Both the position numbers and the translations under genes were made by a program. Under the pieces are notes generated by a model. That model searched no databases. It worked only from the letters and a program-made list of their open reading frames with translations, and had not been told where the DNA came from. Shown here in pieces: positions 2,619-54,504 of a stretch of DNA of 64,000 bases. Position 1 is the first letter of the stretch. Every line of letters begins with the position of its first letter. The DNA is taken from the IMG/VR virus record IMGVR_UViG_3300029131_000181. One strand, written 5' to 3'. This DNA comes from a virus.

Positions 2619-2739
2619 TATTATCACTTCCTTGCATATATTATACTTGTTTTTATGTGTTAACACAATCATTTCGTATGATTTTGGTTCCTACGCTTTT
2701 TGCTGAAAGAACCCGAATCAAAGTTTCGTTCTAGGAGTA

Positions 2740-8263: not shown

Positions 8264-8440
8264 TTATTTCTCCTTTTATGCTGCGGATGCAAAGATGTCA
8301 CCGCAAGGGCAGTTATAAAACATTTTATACCGACTTGTCACGGCCGATATATCCCAATTCTTAATATCTCTCTCCTTTTTTAGAAAATTTTTATCGCTGC
8401 GAATATCTTTATGGCATCGTGATATTCGCAGAATAATTGT

Positions 8441-10702: not shown

Positions 10703-11017
10703 TTATTGATATTCAGAAAAATTCCCTGATTTGTGATTATATTCGTGTTGGTCGAGTTGGCGTGGCTGCATCGAAACAGTGCGCAACGTTCTGAGTCTGT
10801 GCATAACGCCTCCTCTCACCAGCGGCGATAAGGTATCCCTGCCGCTGAGGTTATGAGTCCTAGCTCTGTCGTCTGAATCAGCCAGAATCGCCAGCAACTC
10901 ATCGAGGATGCCGATATAGTTGTCGTCATTGATATACTGGATGGTGTTAATCATGGCCGTTTTCAGTGCATTGATAGGTTCTCCGCGCATCGAGCCGGAA
11001 GTATCGACAACGAACAA
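10703..11017 (-). pseudogene. fragment of a vWA-domain gene (duplicate of part of 43690..45384)
   Basis: Translation MFVVDTSGSMRGEPINALKTAMINTIQYINDDNYIGI is near-identical to an internal segment of the 564 aa vWA protein. About 110 bp (roughly 10905-11015) is about 90% identical to roughly 44100-44212 at nucleotide level. No signal peptide, and the downstream sequence is unrelated. Confidence 0.55.
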
Positions 11018-11847: not shown

Positions 11848-14568
11848 TCAGCCAAAGCTGAGCTGCTCTGAGTCAGTTGAAAAGAAAGCTGCCTTTTTCT
11901 TTGCCTGCTCTTTTGCACTCTTACTCATCGGTTTCTTCGTGCCGTCCAGATGATGCTTGCTCTTGTACGAATACCCTTTCCAGGCAGCCTGATAGGAAAG
12001 GTAGCCATATCCGTTAGCGTTGTCCAGGACCTTATCGGTAGCCGTCTCGACCACAACATAACGGGGCTGGTTGGGCTTTGAGAGCTCATCGCTTTTCACG
12101 ACACGGTAGCTCTTTTTCTCATCTACACCGTACTTGGAGAACGGCAATGCGGATTCCTTTTGGGGTTTGGCTTTTGCCTTGGTATTTTCGGTATTTCCTT
12201 CGACGGAATCCACCAGTTCAGAGTCAAAGAACGCCTCATCAAGCGGTACATTGGAGCTGTTCTGCTTCTTTGCTTCTTCGATTTTCTGATACATGGCATC
12301 TTCGACACGGCGCATCTTCCAGACCTTGATGAGGACCTTTTCCGGGAACGTGATGGTCAGTCCCTTTTCCGCCAGCATCTTTCGGACAGCAGGCGTAGCG
12401 AAAGACTTGTATTTTGCATACGGTCCTTCTTTGTGCTGCTCGATTTCATGGCTTACCTGAGTCATGTATTCCTCAAACGCCTTGTTCTGGTCGAGCCAGA
12501 AATCGACTTCGGAATAAGGAGAATCATGGTCCACGGTTTTTTGAAGTTCGCAACTCTTCGCATAAGCAAGACAAGCGTCTTTCACATCGGCAAAACCAAG
12601 CCCAAAATTATCGTTCAGAGTGTTTCGGCGTGCTCCATCCATCACGAAATAACGGCTTCCTTGCTTGATGATGGCGATACCATCTCCGGAAGTGATAGTG
12701 GTGGACTCTTCCGCATATCCGTCGTCAGTCCAGCGGTCGATAATCGATGCCGTATCCTGTACAAAGCCTTTTCGGCAGGTGTAATAATCCGCGCCGTTGT
12801 AAGCTCGTTTCGTGATGCACTTGAGGATTGCGTCAATCAGAGCGTCCTTATCCTTGATTTTTACGCTGTACATCAGGTTACTTTTCACGTTCCAGACAAC
12901 GCCATATGGAAGTCCCAGCGCAATCATAGAACACGCACACTGCAGAAAATGCTTGTGTGCCAGACTGCTGATGAACTTGATGCAGTAGACGGTGTTGTTC
13001 TTTACGACATCCGCAAGGCCCGAGGCATAAATCACTTTATGGTCATTAGTATGGATGTCGATATCTCCGCGTGCCTGAACATACTCATCGGGAGTGAACA
13101 CGGTGCCAAGCCGCATACTGAGCGACATTTTGGCTTTTGCGCTCACAAAAGGAGGCTTGACCTGTTTTACATACCGGCACTGATTCGTTTCAAGCGCCGT
13201 GAGCAGCAGAACCTTATCCTCGACCGTTGCGCCTTTCTTGATTTTCAAATACTGCATGTCCTTGTGTAGGTCCATGTAATAAGCGAGTGCGTCATCGATA
13301 TCATAGGAATTAAAGAAGCCTGCCTGCATGTAGATACTGATACAGGGGGACAAATCAATCATGGCATCCGCTGCCTGCACATCGATGGTCGTATTGTCGT
13401 TGTGCTCAATCGGTGTGACTTCCAGCAGCTTATAGCAAGCATCAACATCTTCGATGAATTTGTGGTCGAACATCTCGGAGAACGAAAACGGATGCCGGAA
13501 CACGCAATTCATTCCAGTCGGAGTCATCAGGGATTTATCGCTCAACGGATGGTCATAGTTCACGAAGATAATCCGCTGCTTTCCTCGGCTTGCTGCGACA
13601 CAAAACAGATTCCGAAGAATCTCATATCGTGACATCGGCTTGCTTGTGCGGGACGACCAGTATTCTTCAGTGAAATCGAACACGACACAGATAGGGCGCT
13701 CCATACCTTTACTGCCGTCAAATGTTGTGAAGATACCAACATCTGAGGAAGGTGCTACCGCCTTATCCCCGTCATTGTCCGCGATACTTGCATAGACGTG
13801 ATGCTTGTCATAGAGGTTTCCGGGGCGATTTTCCAGGTCATTGAGCACCTTTGTCATAGCTCCGATTCGAGCGCCCAGACACAAAACATCTTTCGGATTT
13901 TGTTTATTCAGAAACTCCGTCACCTCATCGACTGACATCTGTTCCACGATGCAGGAACCATTTACGCCGTTGATGGTCTTGCCCCAGATATTGCCGAGTC
14001 GTTCTGCCAAGTCATGAGAAATACGGAAGCATTTCGTGAAAACCACCTGTTCATGGCGGCCGAGAAAATCCTGCATGAACTCCCAGACATCCAGCGCTGT
14101 ATCATCGTAGATTTTCTGCTTCATATCGCCCACTGCGACGATTTGAAGGCCCGGATTCTGAGAACGGATATATTTGAGCAGTTCTGCAATCTCGTCATTG
14201 ATATCCTGATACTCGTCAATGATAAGAGTATCAATTGGCGGAATCGGAATTTTCTTTTCCAATACCATGGCAAGCTGTTCACCCTGCCCGCAATTCCGGA
14301 TTCCCTTTTTGTTCAGCAGCAGGCTTGCAAATCCATGATAGTTCTGAACCAAGACATTATGATTTTTGATTTTGTCTTTGGCGTCAAGTTTGAGTAATCG
14401 GTTATAGGTCAAGTACAGGATACGCCGTTCTGGAGGGTACGCATCACAGAGCACGTTGATGGTCGATGTTTTTCCGCTGCCAATGCAGGCATCACATAAT
14501 ACGTTTTTGCCCGACAATGCCAAATGTACGAATTCCTGTTGTTCGCTTGACAAGTTGTTCAGTGTCAT
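11848..14568 (-). CDS. UvrD/Rep-like SF1 helicase with C-terminal RecB-like PD-(D/E)xK nuclease domain
   Basis: Walker A ACIGSGKTST. UvrD-like N-terminal layout. C-terminal GDIDIHTNDHKV...CIKF...QCACSMIALG fits RecB/Cas4-like nuclease motifs II, III and QxxxY. Start moved to ATG 14568 (the listed M at 14574 is a TTG). Confidence 0.75.
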   Translation of the reverse strand: MTLNNLSSEQQEFVHLALSGKNVLCDACIGSGKTSTINVLCDAYPPERRILYLTYNRLLKLDAKDKIKNHNVLVQNYHGFASLLLNKKGIRNCGQGEQLAMVLEKKIPIPPIDTLIIDEYQDINDEIAELLKYIRSQNPGLQIVAVGDMKQKIYDDTALDVWEFMQDFLGRHEQVVFTKCFRISHDLAERLGNIWGKTINGVNGSCIVEQMSVDEVTEFLNKQNPKDVLCLGARIGAMTKVLNDLENRPGNLYDKHHVYASIADNDGDKAVAPSSDVGIFTTFDGSKGMERPICVVFDFTEEYWSSRTSKPMSRYEILRNLFCVAASRGKQRIIFVNYDHPLSDKSLMTPTGMNCVFRHPFSFSEMFDHKFIEDVDACYKLLEVTPIEHNDNTTIDVQAADAMIDLSPCISIYMQAGFFNSYDIDDALAYYMDLHKDMQYLKIKKGATVEDKVLLLTALETNQCRYVKQVKPPFVSAKAKMSLSMRLGTVFTPDEYVQARGDIDIHTNDHKVIYASGLADVVKNNTVYCIKFISSLAHKHFLQCACSMIALGLPYGVVWNVKSNLMYSVKIKDKDALIDAILKCITKRAYNGADYYTCRKGFVQDTASIIDRWTDDGYAEESTTITSGDGIAIIKQGSRYFVMDGARRNTLNDNFGLGFADVKDACLAYAKSCELQKTVDHDSPYSEVDFWLDQNKAFEEYMTQVSHEIEQHKEGPYAKYKSFATPAVRKMLAEKGLTITFPEKVLIKVWKMRRVEDAMYQKIEEAKKQNSSNVPLDEAFFDSELVDSVEGNTENTKAKAKPQKESALPFSKYGVDEKKSYRVVKSDELSKPNQPRYVVVETATDKVLDNANGYGYLSYQAAWKGYSYKSKHHLDGTKKPMSKSAKEQAKKKAAFFSTDSEQLSFG

Positions 14569-14574
14569 AGCCAA

Positions 14575-14735
14575 ATTCGGACTTCCAACTTTTCACGGGT
14601 TGCCCCGTTACTCAGTATGGATTTCTGCTTCATAGAGCGAGCTTACCGCAAGCCGCAGCTCTTGATAGAGGCTCGCTCTCCACAGACTTTAAGATTCGGT
14701 CGTCCTGACCGTACTGTTCGCCTGTGGTTATGAGG
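14575..14735 (-). ncRNA. candidate TnpB ωRNA / right-end element
   Basis: The region overlapping the tnpB 3' end contains GCTGGC-gta-GCCAGC and GAGCGAGC...GCTCGCTC hairpins. The position matches where TnpB ωRNAs are encoded. Confidence 0.3.
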
Positions 14736-15837
14736 CGGCTGGCGTAGCCAGCATGTCCATTCCTTTCTTTAGAATGTTTTCTGCTGCATTTTTATCCCTA
14801 TCGTGTGATGTGTTACATTTCGGACAGACCCAATGCCGAACATTGAGGTTTTTTACCTCTTTGTTTTGGTAGCCGCAGCAAGAGCAGGTCTGGCTGCTTG
14901 GATAGAAGGTTGGTATTTTTACAACTACTCTTCCTGCCCAACTGGATTTATAATCAAGTTGTCGGAAGAACTCTCCCCAAGAAACATCGGAAATACTTTT
15001 AGCAAGGTTATGATTGCGAACCATACCATTTACATTGAGGTCTTCTACACAGATGATTTGGTTTTCTTTCACCAGTGTAGATGACAACTTGTGTAGGGCA
15101 TCTTTTCGCTTATTGGTCACTTTTTCGTGGCAGCAAGCCACCTTGATACGTTGCTTCTCCCAGTTGGCAGAACCTTTCTTTTTGCGTGACAGCTTTTTCT
15201 GCTCACGCTTTAGTTTAGCTTCCGCTTTCTGAAGATATTTATTGTTTGGATATTCTTTTCCATTGCTGTCAACAGCAAAAGATTTGATGCCAACATCTAA
15301 ACCGATGACGGTATCTTTAACCGGAAGCGGCATTACTTCTACTTTGCAAAGAATACTTACATAGTATTTGCCGCTTGCTGAGCGACGGATTGTTGCCTTA
15401 CAGATGCGTCCCTCAATGTTGCGACTCTTACGATAACGCATCTTCCCAAGTGTCGGAAGCTGAATGTACTTATCGTCAACTTTAATGCTTTTTGCTTTTG
15501 TAGTTGTATAGCTTTCTTCTCCCCGTTTTCGTTTGAATTGGGGGAACCCTTTACCGTCTTCGAAAAAGCCTTTATAGGCATTATTTAACTGACGACAGCT
15601 ATATTTGAGTGCTTGACTATCTACTTCAGCAAGCCAAGGAAGATAAGTTTTCATCTGAGGAAGCAGATTTTGTGTATCAATATAGCTCATACTTTCACCG
15701 CGCCGTTGATAAGCTTTTATACGCCTATCTAGCATAGAGTTATATACAAAACGGCAGCAGCCGAGCGTTTTATTGATTTTGACTTTCTGTTCTTCTGTTG
15801 GCTCTAGCCGAAATTTATAGCCTTTATGTACTTTCAA
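14728..15837 (-). CDS. tnpB: TnpB (OMEGA RNA-guided endonuclease, IS605 OrfB)
   Basis: Ruv[11 protein letters not shown], Ruv[10 protein letters not shown], zinc finger CSCCGYQN...[18 protein letters not shown] (RuvC-III). TTG start with AAAGGAGG RBS. Confidence 0.9.
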
Positions 15838-15921
15838 AGTGGCTCACCTCCTTTATGGACTTTTGTGCTCATGAGTTATTCAGACCCCCCGGAAAAAGTT
15901 GAATAGCCCCAAATTCTCCTT

Positions 15922-15968
15922 AACAAACAAAATGCCCCGGCAGCATCCAATTCAGAAGCCGCCAGGGC
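15922..15968 (-). terminator. leader terminator between promoter P15 and the original helicase RBS (now followed by the tnpB element)
   Basis: GCCCCGGCAGC...GCCGCCAGGGC imperfect hairpin plus U-run, then an orphaned AAGGAGAA RBS. Confidence 0.4.
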
Positions 15969-15991
15969 ACAATTCTTATCTTATTAGGGTT

Positions 15992-16019
15992 ATTATATCT
16001 GATTCGCACAGATGTGCAA
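15992..16019 (-). promoter_or_regulatory. promoter P15 with conserved spacer element
   Basis: Minus strand reads TTGCAC-atctgtgcgaatcaga-TATAAT. Confidence 0.5.
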
Positions 16020-16078
16020 GCTTTATTTTACTATGTTTCATCTTGCTTCTGGGCAAAAAAAGAACGCCCACCAGCAAT

Positions 16079-17283: not shown

Positions 17284-18807
17284 TCAGGCAGCCATCTTCG
17301 CTGCGGTTTTGCCCTTCGGACCCTTCTTCCGTGCATTGGCTTCAAGCTCCTTCTTGTTGGTATCATACCAAACCTCGAACTCCTTGAAGTTGTTCAACGC
17401 CCAAATCTCAGGAGAAGCCTTGCGACCGTAAGTTTCTTCCAACAGGTGGATAACTTTGCGGCCAACTTCTTCCATGATTTCGGCATCGTATTTGCCGCCA
17501 CCGCAGTAAAACCCTTCAGGCATAATAATGTCGTATTTAGGGTCAAGAACTTCAAGCCCCGGCTCCAAAACGCGAATGCCTTTGTAGCCAGCTTTGCGTA
17601 CAGCTTCAAATTTGAAGCGGTCCTTTTCGGCAGCATCTGCGTGCGGATATTTTCCATTATACTCATAAATGAGTCTCTGGATATGGTCCACGAAGTCTAA
17701 TCCCAAAAGACTATTTTCGCCCAAGATGTTTCGAACATCAAAGAAGGGGTTGGCAATTCCGTTTTCACCGGCAAATGCCAACATGGGACGTGTGTAAAAC
17801 CACTCCGGCTTGGAAATGGCATTGATTCTTCGCATTTTGCAGTCGTAGCATCCAGTAAGACCGTTGTTCACAGAACGAACAATATTGTTAATTGCAGCTT
17901 CGAATTCTTGCCCGCAATCACGGCATTTGAAGAAGGCTTTTTTGTTGCTTTGAACAGTTACTTCTGAAGCAGAAAGCTTGTTTTTACTACTCCACATGGA
18001 GGCTGCTTTCGGACATTGCGACGCAAGGTCATTGATGCCGGGAACAACCCTCCGACCTACGCAAACTAGGCATCCAGTGTTGCCGTTTTTTACAGCACAA
18101 ACAACATCTCCAATTATGGCTTTGAACTCTTGCCCACAATCCGGGCACACAAAGAAAGCTTTTTTCCCGCTTTTAGCTGTGACTTCTGAAGCGGAAAGCT
18201 TATTTTTATTACTCCACATAGCGGCTGCTTCTGGGCACTGTGACGCAAGGTCATTGATGCCAGGGGCAACTCTTAGTCCTCTGCAAACAGGGCAACCTGT
18301 GTTTCCGTTACTTACAGAATAGACAACGTGTTCGATTTTGGCTTCAAATTCTTCCCCGCAGTCCGGGCATACGAATATCGCCTTTTTGTTGCATTTGACA
18401 GCAATTTCCGAGGCAGACTTTTTGTTTTTGTTACTCCACATAGCTGCAATTTCCGGGTATTTCGACGCAAGGTCGTTGATGCCGGGGATAATCTTTCTTC
18501 CTGCGCAAACAGAGCAACCCGTGAATCCCTTGTCTACAGAACGAACAACATTAAAGATTCTGCTTTCAAATTCCTGCCCGCAATCAGGACACACAAAAGT
18601 GAGTTTTTTATTGCTTCCAGTAGTAACTTCAAAGGCAAGTTTCTTATCTTTTTCGCTCAGCATTGCAGCTACTTTTGGGCAAGCAACAGCAAGGCAATTT
18701 TTCTTAACCACTTCATACGGCATCTCAATGCCAAGAGCCGGAATAGGAGCGCAAGAAGCGCAGTTGCAAGAGTTAGCGTGCATCATAATTTTCATGTTAG
18801 TATTCAT
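17284..18807 (-). CDS. zinc-ribbon repeat protein (4x treble-clef DUF4379-like repeats) with C-terminal Vsr/DUF559-like endonuclease domain
   Basis: Four tandem ~75 aa repeats, each FVCPDCGQEF...GNTGC.VC.G...PGINDLAS...AAMWS.KNK. C-terminal IYEYNGKYPHADAAEKDRFKFEAVRKAGYKGIRV matches the Vsr/DUF559 E-x-DG...H...D..R...L...G..V.R pattern. Start refined to MNTNMK with AAAGGAG RBS. Confidence 0.7.
   Translation of the reverse strand: MNTNMKIMMHANSCNCASCAPIPALGIEMPYEVVKKNCLAVACPKVAAMLSEKDKKLAFEVTTGSNKKLTFVCPDCGQEFESRIFNVVRSVDKGFTGCSVCAGRKIIPGINDLASKYPEIAAMWSNKNKKSASEIAVKCNKKAIFVCPDCGEEFEAKIEHVVYSVSNGNTGCPVCRGLRVAPGINDLASQCPEAAAMWSNKNKLSASEVTAKSGKKAFFVCPDCGQEFKAIIGDVVCAVKNGNTGCLVCVGRRVVPGINDLASQCPKAASMWSSKNKLSASEVTVQSNKKAFFKCRDCGQEFEAAINNIVRSVNNGLTGCYDCKMRRINAISKPEWFYTRPMLAFAGENGIANPFFDVRNILGENSLLGLDFVDHIQRLIYEYNGKYPHADAAEKDRFKFEAVRKAGYKGIRVLEPGLEVLDPKYDIIMPEGFYCGGGKYDAEIMEEVGRKVIHLLEETYGRKASPEIWALNNFKEFEVWYDTNKKELEANARKKGPKGKTAAKMAA
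17930..18640. repeat. intragenic tandem nucleotide repeats (~225 bp units, about 85% identical)
   Basis: For example, 17950-18090 versus 18175-18310 align base for base with few substitutions. They encode the zinc-ribbon repeat units. Confidence 0.6.
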
Positions 18808-18927: not shown

Positions 18928-19113
18928 TCACTCGTCCAGCATAACCTGCAAACGGGCGTTGAATTCCTTCATGTCGGCGCTTTCCTCGGCTGCAGCAAGG
19001 ACACGCGGATAAATTTCCGGATTCATGCTCTTCAGCATGTTCAGAGTAGAAAGAAGCAGAGGGTTGGTGATAGTCATAGTAAGCATCTCCTTGTTATTCA
19101 TAGTAATGTTCAA
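18928..19113 (-). CDS. small hypothetical protein (61 aa)
   Basis: ATGA overlap with the upstream gene. Confidence 0.35.
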   Translation of the reverse strand: MNITMNNKEMLTMTITNPLLLSTLNMLKSMNPEIYPRVLAAAEESADMKEFNARLQVMLDE

Positions 19114-19949
19114 ACGTTGGTATTCGTGCGATGGCCTTTCAGCGTGCCCTTGTTGAACTGTGTCAAACGGGCGTGCTTCAGAACAAATCCGTCTTCGAAT
19201 TGAACGTCAACGGCGTTTGTGCTGATGATGCGAATGATGGTTGCTTTCGAGCCATCATTCATGGTCTTGGTCATAGGTCCGCTATACTCGACCTTAAAAT
19301 CGAAAGGAAGCGGCTTATGCTTGGTGCAGCAGGGACAAGAAGAACTGCCGTTATTGATGCAGTGGACAAGAGAATTCACGTGAGTGACGTATTCTTCTCC
19401 GCAATCCGGGCATACAATGACGACCTTCTTGCAGCTATTGGCACTTACTTCACGCGGGGAGAAAGCGTTTTTGCTGCTCCACATTTTTGCCACGGCAGGA
19501 GATGTGGTTGCCAAGTCATTGGTTCCGGGAACGACTTTCATGCCACGGCATACGGGGCAAGTGAAGGTTCCATTCTCGATGTCTTTGACCAAAGAGATGA
19601 TTTTTGTTGTGTACTCTGCATGACAATCAGGGCATACAACAATCACCTTTTCGGGACTGTCACAGCGAACTTCGTCGGGATGAATCGTGTTTTTAGGACT
19701 CCACATAGCTGCAATTTTGGGATACTTGGTAGCCAAATCATTGACTCCGGGAACAAGCTTTTCGCTATGGGTTTCTTCGGCTTTGAATGCCGTAGTTACC
19801 TTACGGTTTTTGACCGTTTTGAATCGGCAGACAGGGCAGGCAGTTACGCCACGCTGCTTAGCTCTAACAAGGTTTGCCTCGTAGGTTGTGTATTTGCAAC
19901 CGCAATCGGGGCAGATGGTGATGACTTTTTCGTTCATGTTAATGTTATT
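19110..19949 (-). CDS. zinc-ribbon repeat protein (paralogue of 17284..18807), no recognisable nuclease domain
   Basis: Repeats ITICPDCGCKY...ACPVCRF, VVCPDCHAEY...CPVCRGMKVVPGTNDLAT, VIVCPDCGEEY...SSCPCC. Start refined to MNNINMNEK. The 5' extension overlaps a terminator and a promoter. Confidence 0.6.
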   Translation of the reverse strand, partial: NNINMNEKVITICPDCGCKYTTYEANLVRAKQRGVTACPVCRFKTVKNRKVTTAFKAEETHSEKLVPGVNDLATKYPKIAAMWSPKNTIHPDEVRCDSPEKVIVVCPDCHAEYTTKIISLVKDIENGTFTCPVCRGMKVVPGTNDLATTSPAVAKMWSSKNAFSPREVSANSCKKVVIVCPDCGEEYVTHVNSLVHCINNGSSSCPCCTKHKPLPFDFKVEYSGPMTKTMNDGSKATIIRIISTNAVDVQFEDGFVLKHARLTQFNKGTLKGHRTNTNV

Positions 19950-20009
19950 CATGATAGTTCCGGGTGCTGCTCTTGATGCAATCTCCACAGCGGGTCGGTC
20001 GCTTCTGCA

Positions 20010-20045
20010 AAACAAAAAGGACAACCTCAAAATGAGGCTGTCCTT
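20010..20045 (-). terminator. leader terminator between promoter (20101..20128) and the zinc-ribbon gene
   Basis: AAGGACAACCTC-aaaat-GAGGCTGTCCTT perfect 12 bp stem plus U-run. About 55 nt upstream of the start codon. Confidence 0.5.
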
Positions 20046-20100
20046 GCAAAAGCGGAATGTTAAAAATAAATTGGTAAGTGGTATCTTTGATACAACATCT

Positions 20101-20128
20101 ATCATAGCCATCTCGCACACATTGTCAA
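20101..20128 (-). promoter_or_regulatory. strong sigma-70-like promoter
   Basis: Minus strand reads TTGACA-atgtgtgcgagatggc-TATGAT (16 nt spacer). The spacer resembles the conserved element. Confidence 0.55.
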
Positions 20129-20130
20129 AC

Positions 20131-20168
20131 AAAAAAAGACCCTGCCCGCATTTTGCTGCGAGCAGGGT
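20131..20168 (-). terminator. intrinsic terminator after the acidic-protein gene
   Basis: ACCCTGCCCGC...GCGAGCAGGGT hairpin flanked by A- and T-runs. Possibly bidirectional. Confidence 0.5.
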
Positions 20169-20188
20169 TTGCTTTTGCACTGTTGTGC

Positions 20189-20509: not shown

Positions 20510-20557
20510 GGTAAAATCTCCTTTTTGTGTGTTGTGGTTTGTCTTTCAACATTTTTA

Positions 20558-20585
20558 ATTGTACGCAATTCGCACGCTGTAGCAA
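20558..20585 (-). promoter_or_regulatory. promoter P5 with conserved spacer element
   Basis: Minus strand reads TTGCTA-cagcgtgcgaattgcg-TACAAT. Confidence 0.55.
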
Positions 20586-20638
20586 TACAAAATTTCTTAT
20601 ATTGGGTTCGCAATTTCTTGTATTTGCCTTGGGATTCT

Positions 20639-26862: not shown

Positions 26863-27955
26863 CGCCTTGCTTCCTCCTTTTTCTGATAAAAATTCTCTGA
26901 TAAACTGCAGAAAGCTGCACGCCATCAGGGCTTACCGAAAAGTCGCTCCTTCCTCTTTTAACAACTTTTGGTGACATCTTATCTCTTAATGCACCAGAGC
27001 CGGAGATTGTTACGCCATCCGCCTTGAAGAACTTAAAGCCAAGGCTTGTATAATCTTTATCGGCTCTGCAAGGCGTATCATCGAACATGGAACCACCAAC
27101 AATCTCAAACTGCTCCGGATTATACTTATCCAAAAAAGTGATAGGCACGCCCATAACGCCTTCATAGTCCACCGGAATATTCGCAACCCTATCCACATTG
27201 ATGGCCATGTAGTTATCATAGCGGGGGTAGCGCTCTTCCACGTCCGGCAGAGGGTTTCCGTCATCGTCATAGTACCGCTGCCAGAGAATCAGTTTCTCGT
27301 GGCGCTTCTGGATGTCGAGGTTAGTAAACCATCTTGTTAGACCGTTGATTTTCTTTGTTATTCCATTGGGGGTATCAAACTCGGATGGTGAGCTATAACC
27401 AATCCACACTTTGTTTTCTTTCAGAAGTGGAAAAAACTCTTTGTATGTAATGGCGTTCTTATTCCCGATAATCAGGAACTTTTTGCCGTGCTGCATCAGT
27501 GTGCCAACATACTCACGGAATAAGCTGAATGGCGGATTGGTCACCACGATATCACTTTCATCCAGCAAGTCAAGGCATTCCTTGCTCCGGAAATCGCCGT
27601 TGCCTTCCAGCAGGGTTTTTACACCGACTTCCACATCATTATCATCTCCGCCCTCGTACTCCATCTTGTAGGTTGGTTCGGTGTGGTCATAGTGCGTAGA
27701 AATCAGCTTCTTTAAGCCAAGTTCTGCAAAGTTCAGGTGAAAATACCGCCAGAAAGCGGACCATGTCGGGTCGTCACAGTTGCAGAATACAACCTTGCCT
27801 GCGAAATGCTTCTTGTAGTGCCGCAATTCCTCTGCGACATCCTCGATTCTGGTGTAGAACTCATCATTCTTCGCGTCCTTCGCCTTATGAAGGTTATCGT
27901 TCTTTGCCATGTCTATATCTCCCAATAAAAAATCCAGCACCGAATTACTCAGCAC
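26846..27955 (-). CDS. DNA methyltransferase (N6-adenine/N4-cytosine class, NPPF motif)
   Basis: DEFYTR ... FCNCDDP ... TNPPFS motifs. Confidence 0.8.
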   Translation of the reverse strand: MLSNSVLDFLLGDIDMAKNDNLHKAKDAKNDEFYTRIEDVAEELRHYKKHFAGKVVFCNCDDPTWSAFWRYFHLNFAELGLKKLISTHYDHTEPTYKMEYEGGDDNDVEVGVKTLLEGNGDFRSKECLDLLDESDIVVTNPPFSLFREYVGTLMQHGKKFLIIGNKNAITYKEFFPLLKENKVWIGYSSPSEFDTPNGITKKINGLTRWFTNLDIQKRHEKLILWQRYYDDDGNPLPDVEERYPRYDNYMAINVDRVANIPVDYEGVMGVPITFLDKYNPEQFEIVGGSMFDDTPCRADKDYTSLGFKFFKADGVTISGSGALRDKMSPKVVKRGRSDFSVSPDGVQLSAVYQRIFIRKRRKQGDEGTK

Positions 27956-29813
27956 TGGATGTATTTTCCGTATTACAATGACCGCATGATGTTTTCTTGT
28001 TTTCTACAAGACTTTGGGTTATCGCAAAGCATTCGTTTCCGCAATCACATTGACATTTCCATCGAGCATGACCGTTTTGGCTTCCTGCTCTCTCAATGAC
28101 CTTTAGCTTACCAAAGTGCATATTAGCTAAATCGTAAGTTCTTCCTTTTTTGACGAACTTATCGCGTGATGGATTTGCTTTCAAAAAGGCATCTGCTTCC
28201 TCTTCTGTCATGCTTTCGTATTCATTGGCAAATAACCAATGATATCCTCCGGCAACTGTACGTAGCTTGTTGCAGCAGTTCAAGATAGGCGAACCGCCGC
28301 TAATCCCGTATTTAAGAGAAGCCTCTTTTGCTGTAGAAAATCTCTCTTTTGTTTCAACGCAAATCACACTCTTGAAGTGTTTTTGTTTATAGCATTCAGG
28401 GCAGTTATGCCCGTATACTCTATCGGCTATTATCATCTTGTAGGAATGACCGTTTTTGCATTTCCACCAGCATTTTTCTGCAGACCCGGATGAGAAATAT
28501 TCGGGCTTCAAATTCTTGTTTTTTTCGTAATCCCATTCAGCAACAATTTCAGGATGTTCTGTAGCAAGGTTGTTCTTTTCGTTCCGTCTTCTTTTGCCTG
28601 TTGTACAAACAGGACATGTTGCGTTTTCTTTTGCTCTGCCATTGATGGGTGCTTCCCATTTATGCCCGCACTTAGAGCAAATCCAATGAACCATTTCTGA
28701 GCTAGATGATGACACCATCATCGGGTCAATGCCTACATTCAGTTCGTAGTCCCATTCTTTCAGGAGTTCCGGATGCCGTCCGCCCATACTTCGTTCAGCT
28801 TTGTAATCTTTGTATTGACGATAGATGTCTTTTGAATCCTTTTGTGTATCAATGTTAGGTTCAGAAACGCCAAGCATCTCTAAGCATTGGCGAATTGCTG
28901 CGTCGAGCGTTGCGTGCCCTCTATTGTTTTCTCTGATGATATTCTCGCTATTACGAATTTCCTGAAGCCCATGCTCGCGAATACGAATTATCCGAATTCC
29001 ATTCTGCTTGCATTTTTCGGACTTTTCTTCGTCATTTTTCACTCTTTTCTCATCAGAATGGTATCGAACACCATCGTATTCTACTGCAGTGCGAATGGAG
29101 GGGATGTAAATGTCCAGCTCTTTTCCAATAACTTTCTTGTTTCCAATAACAGCCTCTGAAAAATACTTTTTTGCATAATACGCTACTGCTTGTTCTTGGA
29201 ACGAGGTCTGTCCTTTATCGATAGTGCTGCATATCGGGCAACTCTTGATACGCTGGATGTAATGATATACGCTTGCCTGCCATTCCGTGCCACAAGCAGA
29301 GCATTTCCACCATACAACAATATTGCTTCCTTGTGTCAGCATACTGACATCTACGTCCTTATTTTTTGCAAAGTCATAGTCTTGCATAGCTTCTGCATTA
29401 TCTACAAGCATTTTCGAAGCTTCGGTAATGTGTTTGCAACAACCGCAAGACTTCACTTTTCCCCGCAGCAAAGAAGAGCGATAAGCAACAAATTCTTTTC
29501 CGCAGCTACACATACAGTTATAACGAATGTTTCTATGCCCCGTGCTTCCAATCGCATCTTCTGCCAAAGAAATAACTTTGATACCGTTGTGTTCTTCGCC
29601 AACCAAATCCTGGTATGTACGTTTACGGTCTTTACCTCGGCAGTCTTTACACTTTAACCCTTTCAAGAGCGCGTCGATACCAATTATCATTGTGTTTCCG
29701 CAGCAGTTACATTTCACCAAATAGGTATCTGCTTTTGAATTAGAGCCGGGGATAGTTTCGAAAACTGTTAAATCTCCGTATGTTTTGCCTGTTCTATTTA
29801 TTTTCGCCGCCAT
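27945..29813 (-). CDS. zinc-ribbon repeat protein with internal Vsr/DUF559-like nuclease motif (paralogue of 17284..18807)
   Basis: Multiple C-x2-C...C-x2-C ribbons (KCNCCGN...CKDCRG; WKCSACGTEW...CPICS; CWWKCKNGH...CPECY). AVEYDGVRYHSDEKRVKNDEEKSEKCKQNGIRIIRIRE matches the Vsr/DUF559 pattern. Stop overlaps the MTase start. Confidence 0.65.
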   Translation of the reverse strand: MAAKINRTGKTYGDLTVFETIPGSNSKADTYLVKCNCCGNTMIIGIDALLKGLKCKDCRGKDRKRTYQDLVGEEHNGIKVISLAEDAIGSTGHRNIRYNCMCSCGKEFVAYRSSLLRGKVKSCGCCKHITEASKMLVDNAEAMQDYDFAKNKDVDVSMLTQGSNIVVWWKCSACGTEWQASVYHYIQRIKSCPICSTIDKGQTSFQEQAVAYYAKKYFSEAVIGNKKVIGKELDIYIPSIRTAVEYDGVRYHSDEKRVKNDEEKSEKCKQNGIRIIRIREHGLQEIRNSENIIRENNRGHATLDAAIRQCLEMLGVSEPNIDTQKDSKDIYRQYKDYKAERSMGGRHPELLKEWDYELNVGIDPMMVSSSSSEMVHWICSKCGHKWEAPINGRAKENATCPVCTTGKRRRNEKNNLATEHPEIVAEWDYEKNKNLKPEYFSSGSAEKCWWKCKNGHSYKMIIADRVYGHNCPECYKQKHFKSVICVETKERFSTAKEASLKYGISGGSPILNCCNKLRTVAGGYHWLFANEYESMTEEEADAFLKANPSRDKFVKKGRTYDLANMHFGKLKVIERAGSQNGHARWKCQCDCGNECFAITQSLVENKKTSCGHCNTENTSSAE

Positions 29814-30279: not shown

Positions 30280-30303
30280 TACACTTATTTATCTTATATT
30301 TCC

Positions 30304-30330
30304 TATCATATCCAATTCGCACGGATGCAC
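30304..30330 (-). promoter_or_regulatory. promoter P6 with conserved spacer element
   Basis: Minus strand reads TTGTGC-atccgtgcgaattgga-TATGAT. Upstream (30328-30368) are four GGCAAAA repeats with about 11 bp phasing. Confidence 0.5.
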
Positions 30331-32042: not shown

Positions 32043-32462
32043 ATGCAAATGTTCGTCAATAATAACCTGTCATATGGTAGAGGTTATGTTTACAATATTC
32101 AATATCATATTGTGTGGTGTACAAAGTACAGAAAACCAGTTTTGATAAACGAAACAGAACAATCGCTAAAAGAGTCTCTGCAGCAGACCGCCGAAACCAT
32201 AAAAATCAATATTGTAGAAATGGAATGCATGCCTGACCATATTCACCTGTTGGTGGAGTGTTCACCGCAGCATTTTATCCCGGATATGATAAAAGTGCTT
32301 AAAGGCAACAGTGCAAGAGCTATTTTTATCGCCAATCCGGACTTGAAGAAGCAACTTTGGGGCGGGCATCTTTGGAACCCAAGCTACTTTATTGCAACCG
32401 TCAGTGATAACACGCGCAAACAAGTACAAGAATACATTGCATCTCAAAAAATAAGAAACTGA
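32043..32462 (+). CDS. tnpA: IS200/IS605 Y1 HUH transposase TnpA
   Basis: HUH motif PDHIHLLV. Catalytic Tyr region NPSYFIATV. 139 aa. Confidence 0.85.
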   Translation: MQMFVNNNLSYGRGYVYNIQYHIVWCTKYRKPVLINETEQSLKESLQQTAETIKINIVEMECMPDHIHLLVECSPQHFIPDMIKVLKGNSARAIFIANPDLKKQLWGGHLWNPSYFIATVSDNTRKQVQEYIASQKIRN

Positions 32463-32480
32463 TGAAAGGGGGGCTTCGCA

Positions 32481-33812
32481 GTGAAAATCACTTCCAGCTA
32501 TGCTGTGGAAATCAAAAAGCAGAAAATGTTCGACAATACTATAAAGATTTATCGCGAAGCCGTTTCTTTCTTGATTGGTTGTTTTAACAAAGAATGGGAT
32601 TCTATTCAAAAAGTAGAGGGTGCCAAATCTCGAAAGAGTTTTGCCGAGAAGTTAATTCATACTACAAAATACAGCACTGCTAAATATGATTTCGATGCCA
32701 AGTTTTATAAGTTCCCTAGTTACCTGCGCAGAGCGGCTATTCAAGCAGCACTCGGCTCTGTAAGCAGCTACTACAGTAGCCATAAGAACTGGGAAGCAAA
32801 CGGCAAGGTTGACAGGGAGCCAAAACTTCAATGCGATAGATTTTGCTTCCCGGCTTTTTATAAGACCGTTATGTATGAGGAAAGCAACAAACCAAACCAG
32901 TGCTATCTGAAGCTGTATAAAAACAATGACTGGGTTTGGGTTCCTATCGCAATGCGTGCCACCGATGTCAAATACATCACGAAATACTGGTCACATTGCG
33001 AAAAGAGTGCTCCTGCACTCGAAAAGAAGTACGGGAAGTATTTCCTACGCTTTGCCTTCGAGGAAGAGGTAAAACTCTCCGAAACTGAAATTCAAGACAG
33101 GCGTATCTGCGCTGTAGACCTTGGTCTCAATACTGACGCCGTGTGCAGCATCATGACTGCCGATGGAACTGTCCTTGCAAGAAAATTTATCAATTTTGCA
33201 AGTGAAAAAGACCATCTGTATCATGTGCTCAACCGTATTAAGCGTAAGCAAAGAGAACATGGACCTAAGAGTGCTGCTGCTATGTGGCGTTACGCCAAAG
33301 CCTTGAATAACGATATAGCGAAAAAGGTTGCTGCTGCGATTACTGAATTTGCTGTGCTTTATTCTGTAGATGTGATTGTTTTTGAACATTTGTCATTTAC
33401 AGGCAAAAAGCACGGTGGCAGTAAGGCACAGAAGCTGTCGATGTGGAAGCGTAATTCCATACAGGATTATGTGGAACACAAGGCGCACCGCTGCGGTATC
33501 CGGATTTCGCGTATCTGTGCTTGGGGGACAAGCAAACTCGCCTTTGATGGCAGTGGTGCTCTCAAGCGTGATGAAACCAATCGTGCCCTTGCAACGTTTG
33601 CAAGCGGCAAACAATACAACTGCGACCTAAGTGCGAGCTACAATATTGGCGCTCGCTACTTTGTCAGAGAGTTGCTAAAACCCTTGCCAGCGATGGTAAG
33701 GTCTCAGCTTTCGGCTAATGTTCCGGATGTTGAGCGTAGAATCCAAGTTACACTTGCCACGCTTAAAGTTCTGTATCCTGAGCTTAAAAAACTCAGTACA
33801 CAGGCAGCGTAA
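32481..33812 (+). CDS. tnpB: TnpB (OMEGA RNA-guided endonuclease)
   Basis: RuvC-I CAVDLGLNTDAV, RuvC-II VIVFEHLSF, RuvC-III NCDLSASYNIGARY, CxxC-type Zn region. Confidence 0.85.
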   Translation: MKITSSYAVEIKKQKMFDNTIKIYREAVSFLIGCFNKEWDSIQKVEGAKSRKSFAEKLIHTTKYSTAKYDFDAKFYKFPSYLRRAAIQAALGSVSSYYSSHKNWEANGKVDREPKLQCDRFCFPAFYKTVMYEESNKPNQCYLKLYKNNDWVWVPIAMRATDVKYITKYWSHCEKSAPALEKKYGKYFLRFAFEEEVKLSETEIQDRRICAVDLGLNTDAVCSIMTADGTVLARKFINFASEKDHLYHVLNRIKRKQREHGPKSAAAMWRYAKALNNDIAKKVAAAITEFAVLYSVDVIVFEHLSFTGKKHGGSKAQKLSMWKRNSIQDYVEHKAHRCGIRISRICAWGTSKLAFDGSGALKRDETNRALATFASGKQYNCDLSASYNIGARYFVRELLKPLPAMVRSQLSANVPDVERRIQVTLATLKVLYPELKKLSTQAA

Positions 33813-43689: not shown

Positions 43690-45384
43690 TTACATCTCTG
43701 CGTTAAACAGGTTGCGGAGCTTGTAGGTGATATCCTCGCTGTTGCCGACGATAGCTGCCGCTTCGTTGATGGAAGCGAGCTCCGAAAGACTATCCGCTGC
43801 GTAGTTGTAGCTGATGGTGTAAATGGGGATATCCATACCGGCAATGATGTTCTTCGTATCGGAGAAGCCATATCCGGTATTGTTGTCACCGTCCGTGAGC
43901 ACAAAGATGATGGGCGTGCAATTCCCACCCAGTTCCTGAGATTTCTGGTAGATGCGGTCCATAGCAACGCAAAGACCGTTGTACATTGCGGTGCTGCCGT
44001 TCGCATCGAGGGAGTTCACGGCACCCTTATACAGAGTTTTCTGGGTCAGAGAGAACTGGTTAATGGGCAGGTATTCCCTGACATCTGAATCAAAGCCAAT
44101 GATGCCGATATAGTTGTCGTCATTGATATACTGGATGGTGTTTATCATCGCGGTTTTCAGGGCATTCAGGGGTTCGCCGCGCATCGAGCCGGAAGTATCG
44201 ACAACGAACTCTGCCACAATAGGAATGCCTGAGTCCTTCTCTTCTTTCCAGACACTCTGAGCCTGTGCGATGGTGTTGCCATCGTATGCCTTGCCTGTAT
44301 AAGCATAGTCGTCAAGACCATTGAATCCGTCCTTGGTCGCCTCTGCCTGGTTCTGAGCGCAGAAGGAAACGAAGGCAGCAATAACTTCCTTCTTCTCCGC
44401 AGAGACATTCCCGATGGAATACAGAGGATTATCGTGCCGTACACCGAACGGGATGAACTCGTAGTTGCGCTGTAAGGTCGGGTCATTCTGATAAGACTGA
44501 TACTCCATGACAACGCCGTCCACGATGCCCTTGTCTGCCGACTGGACCATCTGCTGGGTCGTGAAGGATACGAGAGGGACGTTCGCTTGAAATTTCTGGA
44601 AATTCTCAACAGCAGCCGTATCGACAATCGTATCGCTGCCGCTGCTCGCAAGAGCCTCAAGCAGAAAATTAAGACCCGTAGCACTTGTGTAGGGGTTCGA
44701 GTATCCCATCATGAGTTTGCCATCGATGGTTGCGTTCAGAACGGAAGAAACAGACGCTTCACCGTATTCAGAGCGAAGCATATCCCCTGTCTTCTTTGAT
44801 ACGAGAATACCCGCCACATTGCCGACCAGACGGTCAGCCTCAACGGTCAATTCTACGCCCTCGTTCTTCACCAGCTCGCCAAAGAGCGTATTTGAGGGGG
44901 TATAGCACTCGGGCTGATACTTTCCCGTCGAGATGTACTCAGCCGCCGTACCGGACGGAATGGAGCGCAGGGAGACACTCATAGTCTTGTCTCCGGAAGT
45001 CTTGTTGTGCTGGGCGTTGAACTTCTTTGCCATTTCGGTCAGGAAAGAATCTGAGCCGGACTCTGCTGCTTTCTCGCCAGAGGAAAAGATTTCGATGTTC
45101 ACATCTCCGTTTCCTACGACCACGAATGGGTAGGAGGATTCAATGTCGGGCAGTTCATCCTTTGCATCAAGGAATTCAGAGACATCCAGCTGCTGAGGAT
45201 TGACCTTGACCTCCTGCACGCCGATGCGCTTCATCTTGCTGCTCAAGTTGGCATATGCCTGCTCGGACGTCATTGTACTAATGCTGACGTTTGAGTCCCT
45301 CATCACCGTCATCGAAAATACTCCGAGAACAACGCCTACCACAGCAATGGTTGCAACCACAGGGAAAATGTTCTTTTTTGTCAC
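43690..45384 (-). CDS. membrane-anchored vWA-domain protein (TerY-like)
   Basis: N-terminal TM helix. C-terminal von Willebrand A domain with MIDAS DTSGSM and later LTDGDNN. Confidence 0.75.
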   Translation of the reverse strand: MTKKNIFPVVATIAVVGVVLGVFSMTVMRDSNVSISTMTSEQAYANLSSKMKRIGVQEVKVNPQQLDVSEFLDAKDELPDIESSYPFVVVGNGDVNIEIFSSGEKAAESGSDSFLTEMAKKFNAQHNKTSGDKTMSVSLRSIPSGTAAEYISTGKYQPECYTPSNTLFGELVKNEGVELTVEADRLVGNVAGILVSKKTGDMLRSEYGEASVSSVLNATIDGKLMMGYSNPYTSATGLNFLLEALASSGSDTIVDTAAVENFQKFQANVPLVSFTTQQMVQSADKGIVDGVVMEYQSYQNDPTLQRNYEFIPFGVRHDNPLYSIGNVSAEKKEVIAAFVSFCAQNQAEATKDGFNGLDDYAYTGKAYDGNTIAQAQSVWKEEKDSGIPIVAEFVVDTSGSMRGEPLNALKTAMINTIQYINDDNYIGIIGFDSDVREYLPINQFSLTQKTLYKGAVNSLDANGSTAMYNGLCVAMDRIYQKSQELGGNCTPIIFVLTDGDNNTGYGFSDTKNIIAGMDIPIYTISYNYAADSLSELASINEAAAIVGNSEDITYKLRNLFNAEM

Positions 45385-53106: not shown

Positions 53107-54504
53107 TTAAGATACTTTTTCCCATGCGGGATGTATGGAATCTGCTGCTTTTACAATTTTGAGTTTTTTAAGGCTCGCGGATTTTTGACCGTTTTTTGCG
53201 GGTGCTTTGAATTCTACATTTACGGCACCCTTTTTATTGGTATGAGTGCCATGCACAATGAGAACTTTTCCGTTGAGAGAGACTAAATCACCCGGATTAA
53301 GGTTTACCTTTTTGCGTAATAGAGCGCGATGCCCTGCGTATGTCCTCTTGCCACGATATTTGTGCAGGTTTTCCGAATCCTTTTTATGGCTGCGGCTGAT
53401 TCTACCGTTGAAGAGTTTTTTTCCGGTAGCTATTTCTCCTGTACGAATGTCAATGTAGCGAGAATCATAAAACTTTTCAAGGATGCGATTATTACGCCTT
53501 ACCTTTTCATAATGTTCAAACGTACAGCGGCAGTTTGGATGAAACTCGCCCATTGCATATGCATCATTATTATGACTCTTTTCAAGATGAAGCGCGATAC
53601 GTTTTTCTTTTGTCATTGCGCCATAAGTGACGGTGACAAAATCTTTTCCAAAAGCAGCATAGAGTTCATTGACAATTTGCCACCTAACGGTGTTCATAAA
53701 AGCCGCACCGGAAAGGTCGGCAAACTTTACATTTTCTCCGAAGCCATAAAGCTTACCGCTTTTTTGGTGATTGGCAGGCGTATGGCACTTTTCGCATACC
53801 GTTAGAAGTTCGTCCAGACTGTTGCCGTGACGACCTTTCCAGTAGAACATATGATGCATATGTAAAATCGCACCTTCTGTAGCTTTACGCCCACAAACCT
53901 TACAGACATAGTTATCGCGGTAAAATACCGCTTCCCGCAAGGTTGCCAAGTTGTAGCGGGGACCTTTCTGGTAGTCTACACCTTCCGGTTTTGATTCGCC
54001 TTTCTGGATGGCTTGCAGCAACATTGTGTCGAAAGAACCAACCTCAACCGTTGCATGAGTAATGGGCATTACCGCACAATACATCTTAACAACGTTGACA
54101 TTGAGTTCTTTCTTATGTCTCAAAGATGGAGCAAGCCAACTCTCGCCGCGTTTGCGATTATCGAAACGCGGTTTACGGTAGCGCAGTCTGTTTCTTCGGG
54201 AACGACGCATCTTGCGACAATCATCGTGATGTTCCTTCTCATCCTGTAATGTATCATACTGCGCAGATACATACTCGTGAGATTGACTTTTCACACTGAT
54301 GCCGATGTAGTTGTAGCCAACATCCTCACAGATTTCGATGGGTTGTGTGTTTGTTTTGCTGTCATACAGCAGCTGGATGGTAAAAGGATGATGCTTAACG
54401 ATTTTTGCTTTTCCGTCTTTCAAGAGGCGGCGTACCTTGCCAAGACGGAAGGTAGGCATTAAGCGTTCACCACTGTTGCTGAGAACGCAAACGCAAGTGC
54501 TCAT
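53107..54504 (-). CDS. iscB: IscB (OMEGA RNA-guided nuclease, Cas9 ancestor)
   Basis: N-terminal PLMP-domain motif (GERLMPTFRLGKVRRLL). HNH CKVCGRK...HMHHMFYWKGRHGNSLDELLTVCEKCH. RuvC-III NNDAYAMGEF. 465 aa. Confidence 0.85.
   Translation of the reverse strand: MSTCVCVLSNSGERLMPTFRLGKVRRLLKDGKAKIVKHHPFTIQLLYDSKTNTQPIEICEDVGYNYIGISVKSQSHEYVSAQYDTLQDEKEHHDDCRKMRRSRRNRLRYRKPRFDNRKRGESWLAPSLRHKKELNVNVVKMYCAVMPITHATVEVGSFDTMLLQAIQKGESKPEGVDYQKGPRYNLATLREAVFYRDNYVCKVCGRKATEGAILHMHHMFYWKGRHGNSLDELLTVCEKCHTPANHQKSGKLYGFGENVKFADLSGAAFMNTVRWQIVNELYAAFGKDFVTVTYGAMTKEKRIALHLEKSHNNDAYAMGEFHPNCRCTFEHYEKVRRNNRILEKFYDSRYIDIRTGEIATGKKLFNGRISRSHKKDSENLHKYRGKRTYAGHRALLRKKVNLNPGDLVSLNGKVLIVHGTHTNKKGAVNVEFKAPAKNGQKSASLKKLKIVKAADSIHPAWEKVS

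Follow-up and report, generated by a model that had tools for sequence, protein, structure and literature searches.

The 64,000-nt viral record IMGVR_UViG_3300029131_000181 (hereafter the window, by which we mean the whole of this stretch) carries a 1,330-bp element with tnpB as its only gene, integrated in the 10-nt spacer that separates the Shine-Dalgarno sequence (SD) from the start codon of a helicase gene, where it has duplicated 8 bp (GAATTTGG). The repetition of this octamer is not a matter of chance, and the insertion is proven by related genomes that carry the empty allele. The explanation that we favour, and that we consider probable, is that the element is a non-autonomous TnpB/ωRNA transposon of OMEGA type (for obligate mobile element-guided activity), that it belongs to a phage-borne lineage with IS605-type ancestors whose ends were exchanged for inverted repeats of ~24 bp, and that its integration, expression and homing proceed as proposed further below. 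The phage is uncultured; a megablast search of the locus against GenBank phages returned no match, and the helicase found only a match of 63 aa.

The helicase site in occupied and empty genomes

A first-pass annotation of the window had placed a solo-tnpB element between the helicase gene's SD and its ATG, pointing to an octamer shared by both junctions and to the fact that deletion of the 1,338 bp between them restores a ribosome-binding site, a spacer and a start codon. The octamer is indeed found on the minus strand at 15916-15909 and 14578-14571, and the order on that strand is ...GTTTGTTAAGGAGAATTTGG / GGCTATTCAAC...(1,330 bp)...GTTGGAAGTCC / GAATTTGGCTATGACACTG.... Removal of the 1,338 bp in silico (15908 to 14571) gives AAGGAGAATTTGGCTATG, and the identical sequence naturally precedes the helicase gene in related genomes with an empty site; the predicted empty site itself, AAGGAGAATTTGGCT-ATG, is present in 13 related phage contigs. 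The comparison with related phages had been set beforehand as the test of the proposal, and its outcome was positive: the opposite pattern, that of different flanks and no junction between ribosome-binding site and ATG, was not seen. The octamer, which had been put forward as a junction marker, does stand at both junctions, and what it actually represents is a target-site duplication of 8 bp, accompanied by terminal inverted repeats.

The relatives were collected by a protein-guided scan of IMG/VR with the helicase, which yielded 31 loci on phage contigs of 120-220 kb that are 95-99% identical. The helicase gene is preceded by exactly ...GTTAAGGAGAATTTGGCT ATGACACTGAAC..., with no element, in L001, L003, L012-14, L016-20, L022 and L030, and the element is present, with the same right junction as in the window, in L004, L007, L025, L027 and L031. 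With contigs from human-gut metagenomes added to the IMG/VR loci, the set comprises 46 genomes, in which the site is occupied, with the same junctions, in 22 (the window and 21 others) and empty in 24. The exact target is found in 13 of the 24 empty genomes, and variant spacers (GATATAGCT, GATATGGCT or GATTAGAGTT) in the other 11. The element core (Table 1) is bounded exactly by the points where its resemblance to independent copies elsewhere sets in and breaks off, and the core is absent from the empty sites.

Table 1. Features of the tnpB element, its insertion site and the other OMEGA-type loci (positions are those of the window)
Feature	Position	Strand	Remarks
Helicase gene, UvrD/AAA_19 type	11848..14568	-	906 aa from ATG; Pfam AAA_19 and UvrD-helicase
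Predicted guide GAATTTGGCTATGACACTGA	14559..14578	-	first 20 nt of flank, helicase ATG included; unpaired in fold; position by analogy
Right target-site duplication copy GAATTTGG	14571..14578	-	also first 8 nt of predicted guide
Right terminal inverted repeat, reverse complement GGACTTCCAACTTTTCACGGGTTG	14579..14602	-	also 3' arm of RNA terminal hairpin
Predicted ωRNA scaffold	14579..14776	-	overlaps 3' end of tnpB, extends to right end
Element core	14579..15908	-	1,330 bp, from GGCTATTCAAC... to ...GTTGGAAGTCC
tnpB	14728..15837	-	369 aa, TTG start; Pfam matches; sole open reading frame between the octamer copies
SD of tnpB, AAAGGAGGTG	15845..15854	-	predicted anti-SD pairing -17.9 kcal/mol, spacing 5 nt
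Left terminal inverted repeat GGCTATTCAACTTTTTCCGGGGGG	15885..15908	-	17/24 identical to reverse complement of right end
Left target-site duplication copy GAATTTGG	15909..15916	-	single copy in empty genomes
Displaced helicase SD, AAGGAG	15916..15921	-	now 1.35 kb from ATG
Leader hairpin and U-run	15932..15970	-	between promoter and SD; dG -29 kcal/mol, z -6.68
Promoter-like motif, TTGCAC-16 nt (TGTGCGAAT core)-TATAAT	15992..16019	-	kept in all relatives
Y1 tnpA	32043..32462	+	139 aa; beside 443-aa protein at 32481..33812
IscB gene	53107..54504	-	RRXRR (E=5e-46) and HNH

The helicase gene is matched by tblastn over residues 1-906 in the occupied loci where the gene is complete (L004, L007, L025, L027 and L031), and its open reading frame (ORF) has 908 and 906 codons in L004 and L097. 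The predicted pairing of its leader with the anti-SD amounts to -8.2 kcal/mol at a spacing of 8 in the empty allele, versus -4.1 kcal/mol at a spacing of 15 in the occupied one. In occupied genomes, translation of the helicase may begin at an in-frame TTG (14574), 7 nt past the right end's GGAAG. Two further ways of restoring initiation were considered and not adopted. The GGAAG of the right end makes a poor replacement SD, given its pairing energy of just -4.1 kcal/mol (spacing 13-15 nt) and its absence from other subfamilies of the element, and an RNA 'panhandle' formed by the left and right ends, which would bring SD and ATG back into proximity, would still leave ~17 single-stranded nt.

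Element ends, sibling insertions, tnpB and its RNA

The terminal inverted repeats of the family are ~24 bp long (5'-GG...CC-3') and imperfect, with 17-21 of 24 positions identical; within the five subfamilies the values are 17, 18, 21, 18 and 18 of 24. L150 and L264, the two subfamilies that have diverged most, show joint changes at the two ends, and in them the identity between repeats of the same subfamily exceeds every value between subfamilies; the other three subfamilies cannot be distinguished in this way. The right repeat doubles as the 3' arm of the RNA's terminal hairpin, and the left end therefore resembles the 5' arm of that hairpin; the left end of the element has no hairpin of its own.

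Copies that are 80-99% identical to the window element occupy many other sites in related phages, and similarity within the family begins at GG(C/T)(T/C)ATTCAAC and ends at ...GGA(A/G)GTCC. Nine independent insertions are flanked by perfect 8-bp duplications that differ from one another and all start with GA: GAATTTGG, GAGAGATA, GAAAAACA, GAGTGTTA, GAGTAATA and GATGTAGT in the subfamily group of the window, GAAAATAG and GAGATTCC in a subfamily of 75% identity (three occurrences in phage-like contigs), and GAAAAGTC in a relative with 59% identity. Two of the nine were verified against empty alleles; for GAGAGATA, the empty allele lies within the window itself, at ~8365-8372, and the alignments of the left and right flanks overlap there by exactly 8 nt. 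The duplications usually follow purines (GGA-GA, GAG-GA or GGAG-GA, the hyphen marking where they begin), and the bases that abut the left end vary, with no fixed target of 4-5 nt on that side.

Insertions flanked by 8-mers that begin with GA and differ internally could have been attributed to 'coupling sequences' of the Tn916 type. This was rejected in view of two empty alleles (L269-L284 compared with L056, and L285-L297 compared with L049-051), which reveal adjacent deletions of 34+8 and 48+8 nt, one of which takes out a terminator hairpin together with an SD. The native right-side 8-mer starts with GA in both cases and follows GGAG or CGAA. For a third mismatched insertion the search yielded no empty allele.

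The position of the copies relative to genes is also recurrent. At 10 of ~29 independent sites the right end is followed, at a distance of 7-10 nt, by the start of a long ORF on the same strand, and at 13 this distance is 3-10 nt; at such sites the duplicated 8-mer is the spacer between SD and ATG, so that the element parts the SD from the start codon, as it does in about half of the independent insertions. Many copies land there because the duplication begins with GA and usually follows purines, as in GGAG-GA. According to the gene tables, all copies are co-oriented with the downstream gene, which can be explained if tnpB has to be read from an upstream promoter. A guide-directed origin of new insertions was considered and rejected, as no sequence is shared upstream of the insertion sites.

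Several copies depart from this pattern. In L048 (2470-3770, and also in L105, L118 and L124) a family member sits inside a phage tRNA array, between tRNA-Asn and tRNA-Met, and its right end abuts a 5'-truncated tRNA; only in L048 and L143 does the right flank not begin with GA. In L033-L036, L053, L054, L068, L120 and L141 a tnpB (2501-3607) that is 99% identical to that of the window has had its first 54 nt replaced by the phage promoter motif (TTGCCTGGTTGTGCGAACTGGATACTGTAAAAT), with loss of the left end, and it lies 8 nt upstream of a 501-codon ORF; L262 is similar. These copies look immobilised and possibly domesticated. Finally, L236, L238, L241 and L252 contain GGCGCTTCAACTTTTT(C/T)CGGGGG plus a T-run, 21/23 identical to the left end of the element, with a short hairpin before it and unrelated DNA after it, which could be the remnant of a solo end or a look-alike terminator.

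The TnpB protein matches the Pfam families HTH_OrfB_IS605, OrfB_IS605 and Cas12f1-like_TNB with E-values of 1e-20, 1.1e-28 and 3.8e-24, all of which pass the cut-offs. The motifs GLDVG, VEDL and HDRD are visible in its ORF, and the RuvC residues D181, E265 and D346/D348 are invariant in an alignment of ten sequences; with its nuclease residues intact, the protein is therefore not a repressor of the TldR type. Every copy is intact and has a TTG start, and the ratio of nonsynonymous to synonymous substitution rates (dN/dS) between subfamilies is 0.05-0.07, which shows that tnpB is maintained under purifying selection; TnpB is therefore predicted to be functional.

The first-pass annotation had also expected the 3' region to have the hairpins of an ωRNA, and the analysis bears this out. 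The scaffold folds with a minimum free energy of -80.3 kcal/mol (z -4.39), the first 20 nt of the flank remaining unpaired; compensatory changes affect 11 of 30 consensus pairs in nine relatives with 57-91% TnpB identity; and a GTAC-stem and the motifs CTGTGGAGA and GAAGCAGAAA are common to this RNA and to those of canonical relatives. A search of Rfam gave no model for the 3' RNA of the element. By analogy with known systems, the RNA would be an ωRNA whose guide starts at the flank (GAATTTGGCTATGAC...) and covers the start codon of the helicase. The 13 empty genomes with the exact target share with the window the 22 nt that follow the right end, so the predicted guide would match them. In the occupied allele, the left junction matches the guide over 8 nt only, and the target at the right junction is preceded by AAGTCC and not by AAGGA. 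As for a target-adjacent motif (TAM), only a purine-rich RRGA recurs before targets, versus YCCGA at the right end.

The upstream promoter and leader terminator that had been described were likewise recovered, the former as one copy of a repeated promoter-like motif and the latter as a strong hairpin with a U-run. The motif, TTGCxx...TGTGCGAAT...TAxAAT on the minus strand (families D2, D3 and D9), occurs at least 12 times in the window, for example at 1583-1628, 15981-16026, 20551-20594, 30294-30341, 38381-38428, 41529-41576, 42740-42785 and 48136-48183. The conserved TGTGCGAAT core in the spacer is unusual, and a sigma-70 scanner misses the motif because its -35 box matches TTGACA at only three of six positions. 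The leader hairpin, of 13 GC-rich base pairs, is conserved in 37 of the 37 relatives aligned over that stretch and could be a terminator or attenuator, or else a 5' stabiliser. A generic promoter scan of the 70-nt left end of the element found no promoter-like site, and tnpB would be transcribed by read-through from the upstream phage promoter. This has to be stated conditionally because the intervening hairpin looks like a terminator; dependence on read-through is supported by the several copies without a left end in which a phage promoter motif has become fused to tnpB.

The nearest bacterial relatives of the TnpB are at most 50% identical and come from Bacillota; a Y1 tnpA lies directly upstream in ~25 of 80 such loci. 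These canonical relatives have directly repeated hairpins at both ends, with right ends of ...GTCAA; canonical viral relatives and the cultured Enterocloster phage CB473P3 and Bacillus phage SPG24 likewise show directly repeated hairpins, with right ends of ...GTCAA/...TTCAAG. The clade of the window (57-100% identity) was found only on phage-like contigs. Its right-end motif has zero matches in 185,579 species genomes, and a scan of IMG/VR with that motif gave no sites beyond those reached through the protein. A scan of IMG/VR with the left-end repeat gave mostly chance matches, together with a terminator-like look-alike, and no autonomous partner. At a threshold of E<=1e-40, 225 GenBank phage records match the TnpB.

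A mobilisation of ISL3 type was also considered, as ISL3 ends start with GGCTCTT and ISL3 elements make 8-bp duplications; no literature linking ISL3 and TnpB was found. According to a review (PMC13565253), IS200/IS605 elements lack terminal inverted repeats as well as target duplications; the element has both and is therefore not a canonical member of that family. Some branches of TnpB are associated with DDE transposases, always together with inverted terminal repeats, and their solo copies can be moved in trans, according to the main text of Altae-Tran et al. (2023; PMC10691335).

Population pattern and competing explanations

Neighbour-joining trees were built for 1.5 kb of the right flank and 0.8 kb of the left flank, and in both of them occupied and empty genomes interleave throughout. 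Nucleotide diversity, taken over the 12 occupied genomes with all parts present, is 0.010 in the element versus 0.059 in the adjacent 1.5 kb (the 5' region of the helicase gene), and the latter value is about the same as among empty genomes. At the helicase site the element is thus young relative to its flanks and present in many diverged phage backgrounds.

A single nucleotide polymorphism (SNP) tracks occupancy among 410 positions of the right flank and the last 110 of the left flank. It lies at position 14556 of the window (nt 13 of the helicase gene, 23 nt beyond the right end) and changes GAC to AAC (Asp5Asn), with A in 21 of the 22 occupied genomes and G in 24 of the 24 empty ones; at this codon, L027 shows a further change, to AAT. 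Because independent transpositions into G alleles would lack this marker, the most likely course is a single insertion at the helicase gene, after which homologous recombination with very short conversion tracts carried the element from one background to another. The TnpB of ISDra2 cuts 15-21 bp from the TAM, and the SNP is on the side, and roughly at the distance, of the cut that would be expected here, which is compatible with homing, though the marker is only one. Possible readings of the SNP are a marker of co-conversion, a scar left by repair or a change that compensates for translation; it is probably not a resistance allele, as position 23 exceeds a guide of 16-20 nt. Within the 120-nt leader, which is otherwise conserved, variation is highest in the spacer between SD and ATG, the TAM-proximal portion of the predicted target; this could reflect escape from cleavage or weak constraint. 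The pattern as a whole fits a recent spread by recombination, possibly in the form of nuclease-driven homing.

The explanation that we favour can be laid out as a series of steps. A DDE-type transposase supplied in trans would integrate the element by means of cuts staggered by 8 bp. tnpB would have no promoter of its own and would be read from the upstream phage promoter, and the first 16-20 nt of the flank (the duplication and the start of the helicase gene) would become the guide of the ωRNA. The TnpB-ωRNA complex would then cut copies of the site that are free of the element, whether these belong to co-infecting relatives or arise when the element is excised precisely between the 8-bp repeats, and repair from an occupied genome would copy the element in. 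Homing of this kind would explain the high frequency of the element despite the loss of the helicase SD.

Several observations weigh against this explanation. No transposase or DDE enzyme was found among the 30 largest ORFs of the window (which include helicases, methylases, HNH and GmrSD proteins and zinc-finger proteins) or adjoining any member of the family. It is awkward that the inverted repeats differ strongly between subfamilies and co-diverge with TnpB and the RNA, since an enzyme acting in trans would have to co-diverge as well, and the preference for GA on the side of the right end only is unusual for DDE enzymes. Before the target there is nothing more than a loose purine-rich context (RRGA), which does not define a TAM, so that cleavage of empty sites stays a proposal. 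In addition, 13 of the 24 empty genomes keep a perfectly matching target, and any drive must be incomplete for that reason; strong purifying selection could account in part for the low diversity of the element; a terminator-like hairpin separates the promoter from the element, so that its read-through is assumed; and there is no explanation of how the helicase is translated once its SD has been removed.

Of the alternatives, the one that fares best, which we regard as unlikely though far from negligible, accepts the insertion as described and attributes the spread to the ordinary, frequent recombination of phages, with TnpB as cargo or acting only to retain the element after excision. The heavily mosaic flanks agree with it, as do the scrambling of both trees for empty genomes as well, the perfect targets kept in over half of the empty genomes (13 of 24) and the fact that no TAM is definable. 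Against it stand the presence of the element in 22 of 46 genomes even though it strips the helicase of its SD, which suggests spread despite a cost, a diversity six-fold below that of the adjacent gene, the strong purifying selection on tnpB and the location of the sole linked flank marker, which is on the side expected for a TnpB cut.

It has also been considered, as a distinctly improbable case, that the element is kept because it benefits the phage, either as an RNA-guided weapon against element-free phages or through regulation of the helicase by TnpB bound to RNA of the start codon. The guide does cover an essential-looking gene of competing phages, and the 99%-identical copies that lost the left end and gained a promoter motif upstream of tnpB (L033-36, L053, L054 and L068, with L262 similar) look like cases in which expression of tnpB was fixed without mobility. 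The copy in the window, however, retains both ends and the duplication and is hence still a mobile unit, half of the relatives have no element at the helicase site, and the intact nuclease residues do not suit a repressor of the TldR type.

A more conventional view, and a very doubtful one in our judgement, is that of an ordinary IS200/IS605 element (IS1341 type) moved by a Y1 TnpA, such as the one encoded at 32043..32462, in which case the octamer would be a coincidence or a consequence of similarity between the target and the cleavage site of the right end. Bacterial and cultured-phage members of this TnpB lineage do have a Y1 tnpA directly upstream, and there is a Y1 tnpA in the same window, found at a different place in a relative. 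This view is contradicted by the nine independent and differing perfect 8-bp repeats (two of them verified by empty alleles), by the variable last bases of the left flank, with no fixed target of 4-5 nt beside the left end, by the absence from the left end of the hairpin that canonical relatives carry at both ends, and by the lack of any match to the ends of the element near the other insertion sequence (IS).

Hardly any probability remains for an autonomous 'TnpB-only' clade in which TnpB is itself the transposase, its RuvC nuclease excising and integrating the element together with the RNA and the inverted repeats, with an 8-bp stagger beside a purine-rich GA: the missing transposase near every copy, the co-divergence of the inverted repeats with TnpB and the terminal hairpin of the RNA (as if the end-binding protein were encoded by the element) and the one-sided target preference, on the side of the guide, speak for it, but no sequence for guide matching is shared upstream of the insertion sites, the enzyme may be encoded by the host, known TnpB cuts 15-21 bp from the TAM and not with a fixed 8-bp stagger beside a dinucleotide, and we know of no TnpB that catalyses strand transfer.

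Other loci of the window, known systems and significance

The window had been described as holding three OMEGA-type elements, and three such loci are indeed present (Table 1), the assignment of one of them being tentative: the only Pfam match of the protein at 32481..33812, next to the Y1 tnpA, is to Cas12f1-like_TNB with an E-value of 8e-4 and 19.9 bits, below the cut-off of 26.3 bits, so its identity as a TnpB is provisional. No match to the ends of the solo-tnpB element was found near this tnpA element (32043-33812). An identical tnpA occurs in the relative L011 (2171-2587), ~3.5 kb upstream of the helicase gene and in the opposite orientation, and this different location indicates that the IS is mobile in the same phage population. 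IscB genes also occur near family members in the unrelated phage-like contigs L152 and L262.

Other features of the window lie apart from the element. A full-length match to HDV-F-prausnitzii (RF02682, an HDV-like ribozyme) at 43594-43663 on the minus strand scores 60.4 bits, versus a gathering score of 44, and sits 27 nt downstream of a VWA-domain gene (43690..45384); it hints at a host of the Faecalibacterium type. A direct repeat of 109 nt, 93% identical, is found at 10907-11015 and 44101-44209; its first copy falls within a short VWA-like ORF (10703..11017), the sequences diverging afterwards, and this ORF has the appearance of a truncated second copy of the 564-aa VWA gene. Three tandem repeats of 222 nt (17848-18513, 69-76% identical) belong to a 536-aa gene made of DUF4379 treble-clef zinc-finger units, and the same domain is present in two neighbouring genes (19110..20180 and 27945..29813).

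Compared with known systems, the element resembles the TnpB-ωRNA elements of the IS200/IS605 family (ISDra2, IS608, Geobacillus IS605 and the solo-tnpB IS1341 group) in its three TnpB Pfam domains and intact RuvC triad, its structured 3' RNA with common motifs, the guide predicted from the right flank and its size of ~1.3 kb. Unlike them, it has terminal inverted repeats in place of directly repeated subterminal hairpins, it makes an 8-bp duplication where canonical members make none, it does not use a fixed left-end target of 4-5 nt, and it contains no cognate Y1 tnpA.

The DDE-associated TnpBs, as presented in the main text of Altae-Tran et al. (2023; PMC10691335), share with it the inverted terminal repeats, a solo tnpB that presumably needs an enzyme in trans and a tnpB 3' end less than 250 bp from the transposon end (150 bp here). 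In contrast to them, no DDE partner was found for the clade of the window, whose closest transposase-neighboured relatives are Y1-associated, and the clade is confined to phage-like contigs. The preference for sites between SD and ATG and the GA-N6 duplication are not described in the portions of that main text considered here (PMC10691335).

The homing endonuclease genes of T-even phages (Seg, Mob and I-TevI) offer another parallel, in that a selfish nuclease gene lies between conserved phage genes, is patchily distributed among close relatives and shows low diversity relative to its flanks, with a closely linked flank marker that suggests co-conversion; the differences are that the window element is predicted to be RNA-guided, possesses the ends of a transposon and has moved to many unrelated sites. 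With IStrons (a group I intron combined with an IS605 or IS607 carrying tnpB) it shares insertion in sense orientation in expressed regions, where the host gene must stay expressed, but it has no ribozyme (its left end is of 70 nt, and no Rfam intron was found at the gathering threshold or at E<=10) and nothing points to its removal at the RNA level. The Fanzor/TnpB proteins in transposons with terminal inverted repeats from eukaryotes and giant viruses (PMC3627910) likewise combine a TnpB-family nuclease with such repeats and with target duplications, and the window element differs from them in its phage context, its prokaryotic type of TnpB (50% identical to Bacillota IS605 TnpBs) and the absence of a transposase from the element.

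Phage tnpB genes, which are common, and TnpB elements of the DDE type have already been described. A search of the literature gave no account of a phage-restricted, TnpB-only clade with inverted repeats, GA-N6 duplications, targeting of the region between SD and ATG and a pattern like that of a gene drive.

TnpB is the ancestor of Cas12 and a tool for genome editing, and to our knowledge its natural biology is understood almost entirely from IS605 elements mobilised by Y1 enzymes in bacterial chromosomes. Here, a phage clade with a swapped end architecture repeatedly lands between the ribosome-binding site and the start codon, and at one of its sites, that of the helicase, the pattern in the population is the one that a gene drive among co-infecting phages would be expected to leave. 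With no transposase found, the way in which solo tnpB elements move stays a live question; autonomy of TnpB alone, if true, would answer this old question for the IS1341 type. Three matters become testable as a result: RNA-guided homing between viruses, the manner in which a module of nuclease and guide stays useful after a change of transposase, and the tolerance of phages to the loss of the helicase SD.

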